Assembly: GCA_964458565.1 (NCBI GenBank)
Contig: CAYWJO010000013.1
Location: forward strand, 1-64,000
DNA length: 64,000 nucleotides
Reading direction: 5' to 3'
Origin: an uncultured archaeon
GTDB taxonomy: Archaea > Asgardarchaeota > Thorarchaeia > Thorarchaeales > Thorarchaeaceae
Part shown: positions 42,466 through 50,503 of the stretch, piece after piece
Layout: every line of letters starts with the position of its first letter
How positions within the stretch are numbered: the first letter of the stretch is position 1
The notes under the pieces: generated by a model
Told to the model about the DNA's origin: nothing
Seen by the model: the letters and a program-made list of their open reading frames with translations, nothing else
The model's database searches: none
Made by a program: the position numbers and the translations under genes

Positions 42466-42801
42466 CTATCTTTCATTTTTCATAGCACCAAACGCCAACC
42501 GTTTAGCTGCTTCTCTCATTTCAGATAATTTCTCGCCATATTGAATGACATCACTATAGAGATCCATTTGCTCATGAATACTCTTCTCAACATAGGATGA
42601 AACTGCTTCGGAGCGGCTTCTAAAAACATCAAGTTCAACGAGGGTGTCGATTATTTTAACTATATCTGCACTAAGTCGTGTCATCACATGGACTTCTCGC
42701 TTTTTGATCTCAAACTCCTCTGATTGAAGTTCACCAAGAATTCTATCTTTTAGTGTGATCTGTACCTGGTCGCCCTCTGATTCACTTTTTTTCGGTGGCA
42801 T
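42466..42801 (-). CDS. Ribbon-helix-helix (CopG/Arc-like) regulator
   Basis: HVMTRLSADIVKIIDTLVELDVFRSRSEAVSSYV. Confidence 0.75.
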   Translation of the reverse strand: MPPKKSESEGDQVQITLKDRILGELQSEEFEIKKREVHVMTRLSADIVKIIDTLVELDVFRSRSEAVSSYVEKSIHEQMDLYSDVIQYGEKLSEMREAAKRLAFGAMKNER

Positions 42802-42970: not shown

Positions 42971-43921
42971 ATGGATAAGCTTGACAAAACCCTGCTCCTG
43001 AAGCTTCTCAGCGATTGTAGAGCATCCTACAGAGAACTCGCAAGAGAGTTAGGAGTTACCTGTCCCACAATTAAGAGAAGAGTGGATAAACTCATCAAGT
43101 CAGGTATTATAGAGAGCTTCACCATCGATATCTCTCAAGAAACTCTTGGTGTAAGTTGGGTGTATGCTGAGATTGAAACCGATCTATCTGAAGATCGAAA
43201 CGCATTAATCCATGCTATTTGTGCGCATAAATTCACAAATGAGATATTCGCTGTTGGATCCAAGAAATACATCGTATTTGGTGAAGTACCGCTTCTCGAA
43301 GGTATGTATGACTATGGTAAATTCTTGCGAAGTCTAGATGGAGTATGCAATGTGGAAATCACACCTGTTCGGCAATTACCAACAAGCCAGCTCTCAACTA
43401 ATAGCAAATACAGCTCAAGAGGTGGGAAGGTATCTTTCACCGAACAGCACTTACGTATCTTGAGACATCTGATGAACAATGCCCGAATTTCCATTTTGGA
43501 CCTCTCTGAAAAGGTCGGATTCAAACCAAAACGAGTAAGACGGGTTCTAAAACAACTTGAAGAGAGTGAGGGAGTTCATTTCACAATACGATTCAATCCA
43601 TCTGTGGAGGATTGTATCAGTTTCATCCTAAAGATCAGCTTCAATGAGAATATGATTGCTCCAGGTGATATCACCTATTGGATGGAAGAGGAATTTCCTC
43701 AAGAGTATTGGATGTCTTTTCTCCTCTCAAGTGGACCTGAGATGGTTAACTACATGACTGCTGATAGTCTCTCAGGTGTTGAGAAGATAATCCGAAGAAT
43801 GAAGGAAATACGATTCATAAGTGATGTTGAAACGATGTTAATCTATCATCTTGAGAAGCCGTCCGAAGACGGATCTCTGACCACATCCGAGATTACACTC
43901 GAGCCACTCTCTGCAGTATGA
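42971..43921 (+). CDS. Lrp/AsnC-family regulator with tandem HTH-RAM units
   Basis: MDKLDK...DCRASYRELARELGVTCPTIKRRVDKL, and a second HTH NARISILDLSEKVG. Confidence 0.9.
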   Translation: MDKLDKTLLLKLLSDCRASYRELARELGVTCPTIKRRVDKLIKSGIIESFTIDISQETLGVSWVYAEIETDLSEDRNALIHAICAHKFTNEIFAVGSKKYIVFGEVPLLEGMYDYGKFLRSLDGVCNVEITPVRQLPTSQLSTNSKYSSRGGKVSFTEQHLRILRHLMNNARISILDLSEKVGFKPKRVRRVLKQLEESEGVHFTIRFNPSVEDCISFILKISFNENMIAPGDITYWMEEEFPQEYWMSFLLSSGPEMVNYMTADSLSGVEKIIRRMKEIRFISDVETMLIYHLEKPSEDGSLTTSEITLEPLSAV

Positions 43922-44070: not shown

Positions 44071-44108
44071 ATTTGGAAGACTCCGTCTTAACGTGAGTTT
44101 ATACTATT
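44071..44108 (+). promoter_or_regulatory. Promoter A: 15-bp semi-palindrome plus TATA box
   Basis: GAAGA-ctccg-TCTTA then TTTATACT (44098-44105). 28/38 nt identical to 45697-45734. Confidence 0.7.
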
Positions 44109-44183
44109 CTTGTAGTATGTATTGTTCAAGTCATTCTCCTGAATCATTGCGAGAATGTACCGATAAAAAACAGTGGTGAAGAA

Positions 44184-44486
44184 ATGAATAAGAAAAACTT
44201 GCGAAGAATTGCAGCGGGACTCATCCTCTTTGCTTTCAGTATTGGTATGCTTACCAGTCTGGCTGGCACCTTCATGACAAGTGGAGTTGCAGAAGCTGGG
44301 GATGATACAGCTGATGATTGGCCAAATCAGGATCAGGTAGTTGATTACCGCATTGATGAGCCCGCACATCCTGACCTTGATGAGTATCAAGTCGTAGATT
44401 ATCGAATTGATACACCATCAGATGAATCAGGTTTAGAAGGCGAGGCTATTCAGGTAGTCGAATACAGAATCGATACTCCCTGGTGA
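44184..44486 (+). CDS. Secreted multi-core precursor peptide (3 x QVV[D/E]YRID[E/T]P)
   Basis: GGTGA RBS, signal peptide ending AEA, acidic spacers, three cores with synonymous codon differences, own promoter and terminator. Confidence 0.85.
   Translation: MNKKNLRRIAAGLILFAFSIGMLTSLAGTFMTSGVAEAGDDTADDWPNQDQVVDYRIDEPAHPDLDEYQVVDYRIDTPSDESGLEGEAIQVVEYRIDTPW
44334..44480 (+). repeat. Three 30-nt core-coding repeats
   Basis: 44334-44363 QVVDYRIDEP, 44388-44417 QVVDYRIDTP, 44451-44480 QVVEYRIDTP. Confidence 0.95.
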
Positions 44487-44509: not shown

Positions 44510-44550
44510 GCCTAGCGTTGTTTTGGCAGCGCTAGGTGATTTTTCCTTTT
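44510..44550 (+). terminator. Hairpin plus T-tract terminator after the peptide gene
   Basis: CCTAGCGTTG/CAGCGCTAGG stem followed by GATTTTTCCTTTT. Confidence 0.7.
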
Positions 44551-44589
44551 ATTTTCTTATCCGCTGTGAAAAAGAATGAGATGATGCAT

Positions 44590-45597
44590 ATGGATTTGCT
44601 AGATAAAAAGATCATACGAAGACTGTTAGGAAATTCAAGAGAATCCTTTCACAGTATTGCGAGAGCGTTTGATGTCACCTGTCCAACAATAACCTCACGT
44701 GTTAATCGGTTGAGACAGATGGGTGTGATCCAGCGCTTCGTAACGGAATTATCTCATGAAACAATGGGTGTTGAGTGGATTCTGACTGAGATAAAGACCA
44801 ATGGTGGGATCAGGAAATCCGATCTGTTGCAGGAGTTCCAATCGAATGCTTGTATCGGGGATGTTTACATGTTAGGCAGAAGTCGTTATCTTGTACTTGC
44901 TGAAGTCTATCCTGAAGAAAAGAGTGGATATGTATCATGCCTCAAGAAGATAGATGATATCGAATATATTGAGGTAAGTGATATTCATCCAATATCTACT
45001 CAGATTAGTAATGGAAACTGTAAATTCACAACAAGAGGGCAAAAGATAGATTTATCCCCCATCGAGGTGGATCTTTTAAGATTCCTGGTAAGGAACTCAC
45101 GCACTCCAATAAAAACGATAACTGATTGCACAGGGTACAGTACAAAGCTTGTACGCAGAGTTATGAGGAAATTCATTCAGTGCAATGGCATACATCTCAC
45201 GTTGAAACTAAATCTCTCACAATGTGGTCAGATTAATTTCATACTACGCACCCGTCTAAGGGATATGACCGTGCAAGCTGATGAAATTGCAGATTGGGTA
45301 TCTTGTAGGTACCCTGAGGAACTCTGGTTCACACTCTTTGCTCCTCGTTCAGACAGTCTTTTACACTATATGACCGTAAGGCAGCCACAGTCTATCGAGC
45401 GAGTGATTAGAGAGGCCATCAAGCACCCTCGCATCGAAGATGTTGAAGCTACCATAATCTATAGTATGTTCAAATCAGAAGGACGAACGCAACAGTTCCT
45501 CAAACATTGTATTGGCAACTTCTCAGAGGATGAATTAGAATTACCGTTATCTTCTCTCCACGAACCGAGTCTGTTAGAACAAGAAATACATACCTGA
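44590..45597 (+). CDS. Lrp/AsnC-family regulator with tandem HTH-RAM units (paralog 2)
   Basis: MDLLDKK...NSRESFHSIARAFDVTCPTITSRVNRL. Shares VTCPTI, S[QH]ET[LM]GVxW, RGxK and YMT with paralog 1. Confidence 0.9.
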   Translation: MDLLDKKIIRRLLGNSRESFHSIARAFDVTCPTITSRVNRLRQMGVIQRFVTELSHETMGVEWILTEIKTNGGIRKSDLLQEFQSNACIGDVYMLGRSRYLVLAEVYPEEKSGYVSCLKKIDDIEYIEVSDIHPISTQISNGNCKFTTRGQKIDLSPIEVDLLRFLVRNSRTPIKTITDCTGYSTKLVRRVMRKFIQCNGIHLTLKLNLSQCGQINFILRTRLRDMTVQADEIADWVSCRYPEELWFTLFAPRSDSLLHYMTVRQPQSIERVIREAIKHPRIEDVEATIIYSMFKSEGRTQQFLKHCIGNFSEDELELPLSSLHEPSLLEQEIHT

Positions 45598-45608
45598 ATC
45601 AAACACAC

Positions 45609-45641
45609 GAGCTGAAGGATCTGTCTCCAATCCTTCAGCTC
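45609..45641 (+). terminator. 12-bp perfect hairpin after Lrp gene 2
   Basis: GAGCTGAAGGAT-N9-ATCCTTCAGCTC, with only a weak pyrimidine tail. Confidence 0.6.
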
Positions 45642-45696
45642 TCCTTCATTATCTAGTTTGATACAATTTTAGGACTATCGATTATCAAAAAGGGAA

Positions 45697-45734
45697 ATTT
45701 GTAAGAGACTCTCGTAACGCGTCTTTATACTAAT
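45697..45734 (+). promoter_or_regulatory. Promoter B: near-copy of promoter A
   Basis: TAAGA-gactc-TCGTA then TTTATACT (45724-45731), with the same spacing as promoter A. Confidence 0.65.
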
Positions 45735-45754
45735 AATTTCTCTATAACTCCTAC

Positions 45755-45880
45755 AAGTGTCACTCAAACCAAATTTGGATGTAATGGATTTCCTGAAAGA
45801 CGGTCTTCCTTATCACCTCTTCATCTCCTCACGAGTGCACTTCGGGTGGGGGGCTGGTCACTCCCCGCTCGTATTTTTTC
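45755..45880 (+). ncRNA. Candidate ~125-nt regulatory small RNA
   Basis: Downstream of promoter B. C/U-rich anti-SD tract (45806-45830), GC-rich three-way junction (45831-45872), T6 tract (45874-79), and no credible ORF. Confidence 0.5.
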
Positions 45881-45960
45881 ATATTCTCTCTTATAGAATC
45901 TGTTTCAGAAACTTATGCATTCTGTATTATTGTGAATCCCTTCGACTAACAGTTCTTGTT

Positions 45961-48900
45961 TCATCTTTTTTTCTTATAGATAATCACGACAACCAAAATG
46001 CCTATGGAACATCCACCTATCAACAGCAACGGTCCCCAAAGTTCCCAATCAATACAAGGCCACACACAAGGTTCTACCTCCTCTTCACCCTTAACGACAA
46101 TAACTTCAGCTATGCCAATGAGATCCCCATTGAGATATCCATAAATGGTGAACTGTCGCTCATCATCGATTTCTGCATCATCAGTTGGTTCGAAAGTTAT
46201 CGTGATTTCCTGATATTCTCCAGGTGCCAATGAATGCAGAGCCAAACCATCTATCTCACATCTCCAAAGTGGCAATGTGCTATCAACCTGTCTTGCTACT
46301 AAGAACACAGTACCCGTAGGACCACTTGTTTCATTCGATGGATTTCCAACAATCATTGTTACATTGACTGGAGAGGTGGCAGTTGCAATCTTTATGTTTT
46401 CTTGAGCCTTATTATTTGAGAGGTGCAAATCAGCAGGATCACAGGAGGTGATGGTTGCTCTTATGCACCTGTCTCCGTATATCAATGGGGTCCACGTTAT
46501 GGATGCGTATTCCTGACTTCCTGCCGGTACCGTAATACTCACGATATCAGTAGGACTGGGTTCAATCTCCTCCCACAATCCTCCTGGCTGACCTACACCA
46601 TAGTCACCTATTGAAAAGGTCACCTCTGTGTTTATCGCATCAACTGTTGCAAGGTTATGTATCGTCGCCCTTATAGTATATTTTTCTCTCATCTCCAAAC
46701 CATATCTATCTATGACCGCTCCTGTATCATAGTCACGAATCTCGATATCTGGATTATCAGGAGATGGATTCACATCATGTCCCGATCCTGCTGGATTGGC
46801 AACCCACGTGGATTCCACCCACCAACTATAGATGAATGGATCTGGAAGAACTCCAGGTGGTAGTACTCGATATTGAGTCACTGCTGCCTTTGTTACACCC
46901 TGCTTAGCGATGATGTTGATTGTACCTTCCAAGAGACCTGAAGGTATTATGTAATCTATCACTGTGTCAGCGGTAGTCACTGTAGTACTGAACGGAGCTA
47001 ATCCATCCACAGTGATATCAATTGTTCCTGCATCAAAGTGTTTCAATGTGATTTTTGTTGGAGTGCCTTCCGGTCCTTGAACTGGATCGATTGTTATCTC
47101 TCCTCCATCGCTAACAGCAATCTCGTAATTGAACTCGGGTTGTATATAGTTGTGTTTTGTGACTGTAAGATGTATGTTTTCACCAGATGTGGGAGCAAGC
47201 TCAAAGTATGCATTACCATTCCCATCTGTATATCTGACTTCGAGTATGTCTGGGTCTCTGAAGAGACACACCTTTGCATTATTTACAGGGGTAATTCCAT
47301 CTGTAACGGAAACCACAAATGACTGAGTATAAGTGGATCCAATCGTATCAGGATAGGTAATTGTCAACGGGGTGGGAAGTGATGTCCAGATTTCCATCTC
47401 GGGGTCGCCAAAGAGATTGAAGAGTTCAAGTGTTTCATCTAAAGCCGTCGGATAGTCACTAAATTTGAGAAGTATACTTTCATATTCAGTGATCCCCTGT
47501 CCTGCAGTAAGCAGCTTACCATAAGCAATGATTTGACCAAGGTCGTAAAGGCCTCCTGAAGCATATCTTTCATCAAAGTCATCCCAGATAGCATCAACGA
47601 AGCCCTTCAATAGGATATCATTCCATCCGCTATAACTCATTCGAGATGATCCAATTGTAGCAACGGCTCCCTTTGGTCCTAGATCAGGATCATAAAGATT
47701 CACTAGTTCTTCACAGAGTGAGTCTACATCTCTACTCAAAACAATATCATCATCATCATCAGTTTCACTATCAAACCAACCGGTGTTACAATCCATACTG
47801 AATATGACTGGCCAATTATTATCATAATTTTCCAGACCCCCGATATGATCCTCGATAATGAACTGAGGTAAAGACCATCCGTCTCTATCTGTTATGAAAT
47901 TACCCTCTTCATGATTATAGAAATTACTTGATACTCCATGGTCCCGGTGAAAGATCAGGAATTTACCTGAATTAAAACAATCAACAATATCTTTTTCTTT
48001 CCCTGTATCACTTACAGTCTCTGGCCATTTGTAATTTAATCCATAATCCCATGAATATCCTGTATACCAAGCCGCATCGATTAAATTATATCCATTGATT
48101 TCTGTTTCCTCGAAATACTTTTCGGGAGCATGAGACCTCCAAACACTTATTGGATTTGTGCAGTAGATTCGTTCTGTGGAATAGTCATTTTGATCAAGAA
48201 ATTGCGCAATTTGTTCTGAAGTCAAAATAAATGGACGGTCTTCCTCCCCATCAGAACCGTCTTCAGCTACATCATCAATACCATCGTCATTAGAATCAAC
48301 AAGGGAATATTCATCTTGGAAGCAAGAAACTGCACCAACGTTTGTATAGAACGAAGGCACATCAACCGGATTCTGCTCATAGTCTATTATCTTCTTGATG
48401 ACCTGAGATAATGTGTCTAAATCATCTACAGGAAGTCTACCGATGAATATATCACTAAAAGAATCAAGTCCATCAACTGTTGTGTAAATTACATCTGAAG
48501 CAATATACCCAAAGGCCTCACCTACGGGGTGATGCTCTTCTCTTCCACTAAAAGTTTCATAATTTGTTGGTATGAGATTTGTATCTCCAACTAGTAGAAT
48601 ATAGGTGGGAGCAGTTGCCCACGTTGTATATGCATTACTTATCTGCGTTTTAATACCTGCACTAGTAATAGGGGGCGATAGAGTCCAAATCTTTGTTCTA
48701 AGCCCCTTCATTTGTTTCCAAGTGGCAAGTGTATCTACATCATATTCATACGAGCCTGTAATATCATCAAGATTTGAATGAGTGATGATGAGATAATCTA
48801 CATTTTCAGGTCCCTGGGACGGTATGATTGGAGCTACTGGCATCATTGATTGCATGGGGCGATTTAATGGGTCATAATTTAGAATCATCCCTGAGAGCAT

Positions 48901-49686
48901 TTCTTCAAAGGGCTGAGAGTACAGGTTATCATCTATCGGATCTATTTGTGAAAGGACGGAGTATTCAATCTTGATTTTGATGTTCGAATATACTCTCATT
49001 ATGTTAAGTTGAGGATTGATTTGAATTGGAAAAAAAATGAGTTGAACCAACCTATGGCCTCTAATTTTCATAGGTGCGTTATCTACCGCACCTATGATTT
49101 TTGCTGGTTGGAAAGGGAAGTAAGTATTATTTGAATAAGTGATATAATCAATAAAGTGAGGGCTTGCAGTGATGTTTGGATGATCTACTTGTGGTTCTTG
49201 AGCTGGCGAGATATTGAATCCTGTATGAAGTTTGTAATTAGCTGATTCAATATGAAGACTGACGTTGACATCCCTTGGGATTTCTATAAACCGAGAAACG
49301 ATGGGAACTGCAGGTTTCCCGACATCCTCCAATAGACTTCCTCCTGGCAGGCGGAACAAATCGTATATCATTCCCTCTAGAGGTATCTTCAGCAAATGCG
49401 CTCCGTAAAATGTTGATTCGACCATAATTCCTGTTGTATCACTTGAGAGAGGGATTATCTCTGGTTTCGTATCTGGTATGGACCCATTTATGAACTCAAA
49501 CCAAGTACTACTGGACCAGTCTGATTCTTCAAATTGTTCGTAGTAATCCTTCTCAATCTTTTCGCCCTCTATCATTTCTATAGATAGATGGGACAGTGAT
49601 ATTGGTGGACCAATTATAATCAGGATGACAAGCGCACATGAAAATCTCAGCTTAAGATTCCGGTTCAAAAATCTGCTATCCTTCAT
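45961..49686 (-). CDS. Membrane-anchored gingipain-like cysteine peptidase (C25, clan CD)
   Basis: Signal/TM, C25 propeptide (GKPAVP), WKQMKG, YILLVGD, IGRLP, catalytic DHG and MDCNTG, LFGDP, Ig/CARDB-like domains, C-terminal TM-KKKR. Confidence 0.92.
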   Translation of the reverse strand: MKDSRFLNRNLKLRFSCALVILIIIGPPISLSHLSIEMIEGEKIEKDYYEQFEESDWSSSTWFEFINGSIPDTKPEIIPLSSDTTGIMVESTFYGAHLLKIPLEGMIYDLFRLPGGSLLEDVGKPAVPIVSRFIEIPRDVNVSLHIESANYKLHTGFNISPAQEPQVDHPNITASPHFIDYITYSNNTYFPFQPAKIIGAVDNAPMKIRGHRLVQLIFFPIQINPQLNIMRVYSNIKIKIEYSVLSQIDPIDDNLYSQPFEEMLSGMILNYDPLNRPMQSMMPVAPIIPSQGPENVDYLIITHSNLDDITGSYEYDVDTLATWKQMKGLRTKIWTLSPPITSAGIKTQISNAYTTWATAPTYILLVGDTNLIPTNYETFSGREEHHPVGEAFGYIASDVIYTTVDGLDSFSDIFIGRLPVDDLDTLSQVIKKIIDYEQNPVDVPSFYTNVGAVSCFQDEYSLVDSNDDGIDDVAEDGSDGEEDRPFILTSEQIAQFLDQNDYSTERIYCTNPISVWRSHAPEKYFEETEINGYNLIDAAWYTGYSWDYGLNYKWPETVSDTGKEKDIVDCFNSGKFLIFHRDHGVSSNFYNHEEGNFITDRDGWSLPQFIIEDHIGGLENYDNNWPVIFSMDCNTGWFDSETDDDDDIVLSRDVDSLCEELVNLYDPDLGPKGAVATIGSSRMSYSGWNDILLKGFVDAIWDDFDERYASGGLYDLGQIIAYGKLLTAGQGITEYESILLKFSDYPTALDETLELFNLFGDPEMEIWTSLPTPLTITYPDTIGSTYTQSFVVSVTDGITPVNNAKVCLFRDPDILEVRYTDGNGNAYFELAPTSGENIHLTVTKHNYIQPEFNYEIAVSDGGEITIDPVQGPEGTPTKITLKHFDAGTIDITVDGLAPFSTTVTTADTVIDYIIPSGLLEGTINIIAKQGVTKAAVTQYRVLPPGVLPDPFIYSWWVESTWVANPAGSGHDVNPSPDNPDIEIRDYDTGAVIDRYGLEMREKYTIRATIHNLATVDAINTEVTFSIGDYGVGQPGGLWEEIEPSPTDIVSITVPAGSQEYASITWTPLIYGDRCIRATITSCDPADLHLSNNKAQENIKIATATSPVNVTMIVGNPSNETSGPTGTVFLVARQVDSTLPLWRCEIDGLALHSLAPGEYQEITITFEPTDDAEIDDERQFTIYGYLNGDLIGIAEVIVVKGEEEVEPCVWPCIDWELWGPLLLIGGCSIGILVVVIIYKKKR

Positions 49687-49846
49687 GCTACTTTCCTCCC
49701 TAACACACGATGGCGCTTCGCACGACTATTTGTGAACTCTGTAATAAGTAGTATGCAATCATTCGAACTAAAGAAATTCAATGAGGGATTAACCTTATAA
49801 TAAAGTAAAATACTATATAATGAAAAATGACTTGAGGAGTTTCACT

Positions 49847-50503
49847 GTGGTACAAGATGCAATTACCCCTTTGGGATATCACTATATCCGTTGTTTTTGG
49901 CGATTTGTTCACGACAAAGCATTTCCCGGCCCTACCAATTTGAGCGAATTCATCAAAAGATTACGGTGCATTGCACGTTTGACACGACATGATCTTGTCG
50001 AAAAGCTATACGGTCTAGATCGAGAAGGTAATCCACTGAATGAATTCTTTGAAAAATTAGTAGAGAACTATAAGACATTGCTTGAAACCATATTCGATAA
50101 ATATCCCATTCTAAAGAAAAGCGTAAATGGGAAACGGACTCCATTCATTCGATGTCTATGGCGATATATCCACATTCTTGCTTTTGGTGATCCGGAGATA
50201 GACCCGTTAAAACAGCTCGCTAAATTCAAATGTTATAGAAAAGTTCCGAAAATTCTAAGAGATATACCTAATTATCTCAGTTCTAAATCGTTTTATACAG
50301 TGGTTGACTGTTACATAAAAATCATCTTTGCTGTATTCCACGAGAATCCTGAACTAGGTGATCCGGGTGATATTGATTGGGGTGGAGACGACGAGTATGA
50401 TGGATTTGGACCTTGTATAATACATCAACCTCCCAACCCACCTGATTGTGATTACATTGGGAGAACGATACAGGGTTATTGCCCGACTCATTATCCACTA
50501 TAG
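49847..50503 (+). CDS. Hypothetical protein with an internal duplication and a Cys/His-rich tail
   Basis: Two IRCxWRxxHxxAF repeats. GAGGAG RBS precedes GTG 49847; ATG 49820 is the alternative start. Confidence 0.8.
   Translation: MVQDAITPLGYHYIRCFWRFVHDKAFPGPTNLSEFIKRLRCIARLTRHDLVEKLYGLDREGNPLNEFFEKLVENYKTLLETIFDKYPILKKSVNGKRTPFIRCLWRYIHILAFGDPEIDPLKQLAKFKCYRKVPKILRDIPNYLSSKSFYTVVDCYIKIIFAVFHENPELGDPGDIDWGGDDEYDGFGPCIIHQPPNPPDCDYIGRTIQGYCPTHYPL

Follow-up and report, generated by a model that had tools for sequence, protein, structure and literature searches.

A candidate small non-coding RNA gene with an open pyrimidine-rich tract beside a secreted-peptide locus in Thorarchaeota

The RNAIII of the Staphylococcus agr system lies beside a secreted-peptide signalling locus, has the promoter type of the peptide operon, and targets Shine-Dalgarno (SD) regions with its C-rich loops. 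This RNA of 514 nt doubles as the messenger for a peptide, and its activator is the response regulator of a two-component system. A different arrangement is found in the enterobacterial 3′UTR-derived small RNAs (sRNAs) CpxQ, SroC, and DapZ, where the 3′ end of an mRNA, together with its terminator, also acts as a regulator. Among archaea, the trans-acting sRNAs of Methanosarcina mazei mask ribosome-binding sites, and they have TATA promoters and U-tract 3′ ends. The RsaE/RoxS-type sRNAs of Firmicutes carry unpaired C-rich UCCC motifs that pair with SD regions and block ribosome binding (PMC9266662). Our literature searches turned up no description of a regulatory RNA in Asgard archaea, nor any Asgard sRNA of such a kind.

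Here, we analyzed a stretch of 64,000 nt (the window), which is contig C13 of a 3.7-Mb MAG of 93 contigs (genome label G000). It holds a unit of about 125 bases that is, judged from comparison with related loci, very probably a real and previously undescribed small RNA. The unit and its neighbours are as follows.

42466–42801, minus strand: RHH-like gene
42971–43921, plus strand: Lrp1, with a double AsnC/Lrp HTH
44071–44106, plus strand: promoter copy A, upstream of the peptide-precursor gene
44184–44486, plus strand: peptide precursor, 100 aa, secreted, with three QVV[D/E]YRIDxP repeats
44536–45597, plus strand: Lrp2, a double AsnC/Lrp-type HTH regulator (Pfam HTH_24 and HTH_AsnC)
45598–45960: non-coding gap between Lrp2 and the C25 gene
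45697–45732, plus strand: promoter copy B, with the upstream box TGTAAG-N9-GTAACGCG and then the TATA element TTTATAC (45724–45730)
45753–45879, plus strand: predicted small RNA, about 125 nt, scoring 132.8 bits with covariance model R1
45816–45760, minus strand: GTG ORF of 18 aa, present but rejected as a gene
45961–49686, minus strand: convergent C25 peptidase gene
49820–50503: geneX, Cys/His-rich, 227 aa, with the family motif GPWDxxGDxxYDxxxC

Several of the features by which a trans-acting sRNA is generically recognized are found in this sequence, namely a promoter and terminator of its own, a lack of coding function, and a conserved accessible seed. Like RsaE/RoxS, the unit would be a short RNA with its own promoter and terminator and with unpaired pyrimidine-rich motifs, and the pairing with SD regions is here a proposal. 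However, it shares no sequence or structural homology with RsaE/RoxS and no Rfam match, and it has an archaeal host, a TATA promoter, and U-tract termination. Unlike RNAIII, it is only about 125 nt long and is read as non-coding, its candidate regulators are Lrp-type, and the signalling role of the neighbouring peptide is putative. With CpxQ, SroC, and DapZ it has in common that its core is the 3′UTR of the peptide gene in three sister-lineage loci (L045, L048, and L054), whereas the element in the window has a full promoter of its own and no upstream CDS. The sRNAs of M. mazei belong to the same domain and resemble it in the proposed pairing at translation starts; their sequences are unrelated. 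We regard it as a new family within a familiar kind of RNA; its alternation between a 3′UTR and a free-standing gene is unusual.

The earlier note on this DNA had compared the unit with RNAIII and Qrr. Membership in either was rejected, with no Rfam match and a promoter of the archaeal TATA type, so that the likeness is one of functional analogy only. No Rfam 15 family overlapped window positions 45700–45900 at E ≤ 10, and the orthologous loci L041, L044, L050, and L048 gave no Rfam match at E ≤ 1. The C/D-box sRNA class was also considered; no C/D family matched the unit, and there is no RUGAUGA box within 45753–45879.

BLASTN searches of the 361-nt gap against its own genome and 40 relatives returned chance matches only. 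The orthologues are too diverged for BLASTN, and therefore protein-anchored synteny was needed. We collected Lrp2 orthologues by protein search of the family genomes and of a large protein collection, and then inspected their contigs; an Lrp2-based search for related loci in the genome contig collection found nothing. By synteny, eight further stand-alone copies were detected in Thorarchaeota MAGs and metagenome contigs, each just past an Lrp2 orthologue and preceded by the same promoter motif. Across these loci, the RNA unit always adjoins Lrp2 on its downstream side and in the same orientation. The nine stand-alone copies are those of the window, L050, L051, L079, L080, G021/L041 (the Thorarchaeota MAG TEKIR_12S), L044, L077, and L078. 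Together with the 3′UTR elements of L045, L048, and L054, they make up the 12 copies considered below. The lineage nearest to the window consists of L050, L051, L079, and L080, with about 66% amino acid identity in Lrp2.

A covariance model built from five copies recovered all nine stand-alone copies (E ≤ 1 × 10−12), and model R1 likewise found eight of them besides the window. When 86 family genomes were searched with a covariance model, members were found only in G000 and G021. The model of 12 sequences gave no additional members among 150 genomes of the same phylum, and exact-pattern scans of metagenome and genome contigs returned known copies only.

We compared the window with the four loci of the nearest lineage region by region. 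The 89-nt RNA body was 91–93% identical and gapless, against 68–69% identity in the Lrp2 CDS and 37–46% at the fourfold-degenerate sites of Lrp2. Identity was 53–60% in the spacer past the Lrp2 stop, 58–63% in the promoter region from −60 to +5, where the key motif positions are kept, and 40–50% in the 100 nt downstream. At the fourfold-site rate, at least 81 identities in 89 positions would be expected with P < 1 × 10−18. The terminal hairpin was 43–70% identical between the window and the nearest lineage; its sequence varies, while the hairpin and the T-run persist.

All 12 copies contain CTCCTCA[CT]GAG without change, 7–9 nt ahead of a G-rich/C-rich hairpin. An equivalent of this terminal hairpin is present in each of the 12, of which 11 fold with 8–11 bp and that of L054 was read from the alignment. 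A run of T4–T8 lies 0–9 nt from the hairpin in 11 of the 12 copies. The order of promoter motif, 77–96 nt, CTCCTCA[CT]GAG, and hairpin was found in every stand-alone copy (9/9), and these copies represent three lineages (the window type, G021, and the L044 type). A T-run follows the hairpin in eight of the nine, the copy of G021 being without one. As far as such comparisons can tell, this is how a transcription unit looks when selection acts on the nucleotides of its body. We are confident that the unit is real, selected, non-coding, and restricted to this lineage, and we think it probable that it is an independently transcribed sRNA.

Promoter copies A and B are 75% identical. A duplicated promoter had been claimed in the earlier note, and the pattern TKKAA-N10-TAACRYG-N3-YTATA indeed matches the window twice (at 44074 and at 45700, the latter match spanning 45700–45729), against 0.00 matches expected from 100 shuffles. 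Only four matches to this pattern exist in the whole 3.7-Mb genome. The promoter motif was found upstream of all nine stand-alone RNA units and of every peptide-precursor gene examined. Because the RNA unit and the peptide gene have this motif in common, their co-regulation is plausible. Copy B faces a gap between convergent genes, which runs for 363 nt from the Lrp2 stop at 45597 to the C25 stop at 45961 and agrees with the roughly 360 nt first proposed. From the usual archaeal TATA spacing, the RNA is predicted to start at about 45753–45757.

The other two matches to the promoter motif in G000 are at C6:110818 (minus strand) and C17:12280 (plus strand). The former is upstream of a gene for a Cys-rich small protein of 86 aa (C6:110496–110756) and the latter is upstream of an ORF of 159 aa (C17:12329–12808). 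Both genes may belong to the same regulon as the peptide gene and the RNA unit.

We also observed a conserved leader that opens all peptide-precursor mRNAs, as well as the Lrp2 mRNA in L045 and L054. It consists of ACAAGTCATTCTCGTGA, a loop, and CACGAGAG, and forms a hairpin immediately after the predicted start site (window 44107–44183; L048 5185–5260; L079 1745–1815). The TCACGAG arm of this hairpin is a heptamer that also occurs within the invariant CTCCTCACGAG of the RNA unit, and it could be a recognition site for a protein or an RNA. A palindromic hairpin of 13 bp lies 12 nt past the Lrp2 stop (window 45609–45641). Its stem, GAGCTGAAGGA...TCCTTCAGCTC, is retained in L051 and L052 with a different loop, within a spacer of 53–60% identity.

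The predicted anatomy of the RNA, all on the plus strand, is as follows.

45755–45765: 5′ strand of the closing stem P1, AAGUG-U-CACUC, in both the MFE and the centroid folds (mean unpaired probability 0.12)
45805–45832: pyrimidine-rich tract, largely unpaired (mean unpaired probability 0.62)
45812–45819: anti-SD-like motif ATCACCTC within the tract
45825–45831: anti-SD-like motif CTCCTCA within the tract
45833–45842: 3′ strand of P1, GAGUGCACUU, in the MFE fold
45843–45871: terminal hairpin of 11 bp, G-rich/C-rich (terminator scan, dG −19.2)
45874–45879: T6 run, a likely archaeal termination signal, from reading of the sequence

In the MFE fold, P1 joins the 5′ end to 45833–45842, the 11-bp hairpin follows, and the pyrimidine tract stays mostly open. 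Direct reading of the sequence bore out the earlier note on the pyrimidine tract TTCCTTATCACCTCTTCATCTCCTC, with ATCACCTC inside it, and, together with the terminator scan, on the GC hairpin followed by T6. The three-way junction that the note had placed between the tract and the T6 run fared differently. Its pairs can be drawn, but the fold is not favoured, the best version reaching −23.3 kcal/mol versus −36.6 kcal/mol for the MFE. In addition, its 3′ partner CTCGT is absent from the close orthologues L050, L051, and L079. We rejected the junction for its energy and for this lost partner.

P1 is also predicted in L050, L051, and G021. The window type and G021 have a common architecture of a closing stem, small internal hairpins, an open CU tract, and a terminal hairpin. 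The L044 type is without P1, and its tract is closed by a local stem, GGUCCUC...GAGGUC. The folding energy gave z = −1.95 for the window, which is weak evidence when taken alone, and z = −4.58 for the G021 orthologue, which is strong. Within P1, a single clear compensatory change (A-U to G-C) was seen, along with a change from A-U to G-U. Pair counting in nine sequences, which come from few independent lineages, showed that 86% of the cells pair versus 80% in shuffles, and a slide of +2 scores similarly. Double changes were found at six pairs in these nine sequences, again from few independent lineages. Overall, the covariation is weak, and the predicted fold is plausible. The terminator signal of archaea consists of U-tracts, and a hairpin is not strictly required (PMC8716108). 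Thus, the conserved terminal hairpin may serve the stability of the 3′ end.

The relation between the unit and the peptide gene is clearest in L045, L048, and L054, where the peptide-precursor gene lies after Lrp2 instead of before it. In these loci, the covariance model matches the 3′ end of the peptide gene (36–43 bits, E from 1 × 10−7 to 1 × 10−8). The peptide stop codon adjoins GGUCCUCC, after which come a loop rich in C and U, CUCCUCACGAGGAC, a hairpin, and finally a T-run. The core of the sister-lineage 3′UTR consists of CTCCTCAYGAG, hairpin, and T-run. An alignment of the 3′ half of the L044-type unit with the L048 3′UTR scored 49. Between the unit behind promoter B and the peptide unit of the window itself, no similarity above that of shuffles was found beyond the promoter.

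Gene order could be read fully in the window, L079, L044, G021, L045, L048, and L054, and each of these loci carries a single peptide gene and a single CU element. The two share a transcript or are on separate transcripts whose promoters are of the same type. Since the same core comes right after the peptide stop in L045, L048, and L054, these data support a functional tie between the CU element and the peptide system. Contiguity with an upstream CDS and a terminator in common with it, by which a 3′UTR-derived RNA is recognized, are seen in those three loci and are not seen in the window, where a promoter precedes the unit. The stand-alone gene may well derive from the 3′ end of a peptide gene. 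Sister lineages have the element as the 3′UTR of the peptide mRNA, and on grounds of sequence and gene order we read the unit as its stand-alone counterpart.

The strong conservation of the body has to be weighed against coding and against mere descent. A micro-protein could be read from the plus-strand ATG at 45784 (MDFLKDG[L/H]PYHLFISSRVH...) or from the minus-strand ORF of 18 aa, and the former ATG and its first 19 codons are retained in five window-type copies. However, 7–8 of the 8 fourfold sites of the plus-strand ORF are unchanged, as conserved as the rest, which argues for selection on nucleotides and not on codons. The ATG has no upstream SD motif, and the ORF reads on through the hairpin and the T6 run for 356 nt, antisense to the C25 gene, before its first stop at 46233. 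Its C-terminal continuations are wholly different among copies, and it is absent in G021. L044 has an unrelated ORF of 31 codons in the same frame over TCC TCA CGA, the ATG of which is probably upstream of the predicted start site. The minus-strand ORF, offered in the earlier note as the alternative to an RNA, showed 0 synonymous versus 3–5 non-synonymous codon changes in four orthologues, and its stop is lost in L051; at the same position, G021 has an unrelated peptide of 16 aa from a GTG ORF. Conservation following the codons of this ORF, which that note had named as speaking against the RNA, was not seen, the changes being non-synonymous only. Judged by codon patterns, the unit is non-coding, since both candidate ORFs fail these tests and neither is conserved outside the close group; we regard a micro-protein as highly unlikely. 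The unit could also be an inert relic of a peptide-precursor gene, which has lost its CDS and kept the promoter, a leader remnant, the 3′UTR, and the terminator. Its position is the one that the peptide gene has in L045, L048, and L054, where the order is Lrp2, promoter, peptide CDS, core, and terminator; the alignment of the L044-type 3′ half with the L048 3′UTR fits such a descent, and the 5′ hairpin of the unit resembles the 5′UTR hairpin of the peptide mRNAs. Such a relic would be expected to decay neutrally, yet the body has 91–93% identity where fourfold sites have 37–46%, and outside the promoter the unit and the peptide unit of the window are without significant similarity. The origin may well be of this sort, but the unit is maintained by selection, which makes an inert relic very unlikely.

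Other readings accept the unit as a functional element and deny that it is a free sRNA. It may be a cis element, either a structured 3′ terminus belonging to the Lrp2 transcript or a platform for a protein (Lrp, RHH, or Sm-like), with the near-palindrome CCTCA[CT]GAGG acting at the DNA or the RNA level. This would fit its constant place directly past Lrp2 in the same orientation, and the role of its core as a 3′UTR in sister lineages. CTCGTGA/TCACGAG also makes the conserved 5′ hairpin of the peptide mRNAs and could be a recognition motif for a protein or an RNA, and the G021 motif is a perfect palindrome of 10 bp. However, a full promoter motif with its key positions kept in 9/9 copies separates Lrp2 from the body, and the palindromic hairpin at 45609–45641 looks like the 3′ end of Lrp2 itself. 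A near-invariant stretch of 89 nt also far exceeds a transcription-factor site, and we consider a cis element rather unlikely. The geneX family suggests yet another role, that of a terminator-containing leader (attenuator) of the downstream geneX. In L041, L044, L077, L078, and L050, the unit is followed by a geneX relative that points the same way, and G021 has no T-run between the unit and the geneX relative. Against this, a convergent C25 gene of 3.7 kb lies between the unit and geneX in the window, and the next genes in L079 and L080 are convergent as well, so the unit does not appear to be a leader. The body is fully conserved in loci with such convergent neighbours, and the gaps of 100–130 nt past the T-run leave room for a promoter of geneX itself. 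We therefore consider the leader role highly unlikely.

The small RNA remains the reading that we prefer, and its possible action was examined through the pyrimidine-rich tract. In the window's own genome, the SD 5-mers GGAGG, AGGTG, and GGTGA are enriched 4–6 times before the start codons of long ORFs. Thus, ATCACCTC and CTCCTCA are complementary to ribosome-binding sites in use, as had been said of ATCACCTC at the outset. No 16S rRNA gene is assembled in G000. The sole 16S gene among the relatives searched is that of L081 (G019:C2:61808–63345, minus strand), and its 3′ end is atypical, with unrelated sequence after GTAGCGG replacing the usual 3′ terminus, possibly an intron or an insertion. 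The anti-SD identity of the motifs therefore rests on the enrichment of SD motifs and not on an rRNA sequence. With CTCCTCA[CT]GAG present in 12/12 copies and a mean unpaired probability of 0.62 in the window fold, the tract has the character of a conserved accessible seed.

A mechanism can be proposed from this anatomy. Transcription would start near 45755 from the TATA promoter, whose upstream box is common to the peptide gene, and would end near 45879 at the T6 run behind the stable hairpin. The RNA would then close on itself by a stem between its 5′ end and 45833–45842, which would leave a pyrimidine-rich tract of about 25 nt (ATCACCUC, then CUCCUCA) mostly single-stranded. As its most likely action, the tract would pair with the purine-rich SD and start regions of one or more mRNAs and lower their translation. 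Since the peptide gene has this promoter box as well, the RNA and the peptide would be made together; the Lrp-type regulators encoded nearby presumably recognize the box. We infer that a repressor with an anti-SD tract is the most economical reading of the anatomy. On balance, we lean towards reading 45753–45879 (plus strand) as the gene for a small non-coding RNA, confined to a narrow clade of Thorarchaeota and acting by the mechanism proposed here. Masking of SD sequences, taken as a separate claim, is put forward tentatively.

Candidate targets were explored by a genome-wide duplex ranking of 4659 start regions, in which there was no clear outlier; taken singly, pyrimidine-rich motifs that can pair with SD sequences are common. 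The top predicted target is a gene for a winged-helix protein of 93 aa (MarR/HTH_20-like) at C52:14856 (−32.8 kcal/mol). Here, GTGAGGAGATGAAG (G000 C52:14837–14856) is a perfect 14-nt complement of CUUCAUCUCCUCAC in the RNA and lies over the ribosome-binding site of the gene. An equally long 14-mer complement elsewhere is intragenic, and the C52:14856 gene is a member of a multi-copy family in which orthology is unclear. The start region of Lrp1 ranked 117 and that of the peptide mRNA ranked 1009 (−15.1 kcal/mol). Pairing with the cognate peptide 5′UTRs was inconsistent across lineages (z from +0.9 to −2.9). A full-length duplex scan of the locus pointed to a site in the Lrp2 CDS (44770), which was not among the top matches in L079.

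It is conceivable, although unlikely, that the RNA serves as the post-transcriptional branch of a peptide-signalling circuit in archaea, composed of Lrp-type receptors, a secreted repeat peptide, and the C25 protease. If this were true, one and the same CU-rich element would work in cis where it is the 3′UTR of the peptide mRNA, and in trans where it comes from a separate gene with the same promoter. It would then be an RNAIII-like effector in Asgard archaea and belong to the first sRNA regulon defined there. Apart from such a circuit, comparative evidence makes the unit a compact candidate, with a promoter, a selected body of 89 nt, a 3′ end, and a locus that holds two Lrp-type regulators and a peptide precursor. 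The alternation between a 3′UTR and a free-standing gene bears on the origin of sRNA genes. If the anti-SD-like tract acts on translation, it would offer direct access to post-transcriptional regulation in the prokaryotes most closely related to eukaryotes.

Some further observations concern the neighbouring genes. Members of the geneX family lie directly downstream of the RNA unit in L041, L044, L077, L078, and L050, and their kinship by pairwise BLASTP is weak (E from 0.006 to 0.05). In the window, it seems that an inverted C25 gene has come to lie between the RNA unit and geneX. Some relatives have two or three small secreted-peptide genes in tandem, each with its own copy of the promoter motif (L040 1576–2686, in G070:C8; L053 164–2491). 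The peptide sequences of these relatives differ strongly among lineages, while the promoter and the leader are conserved.
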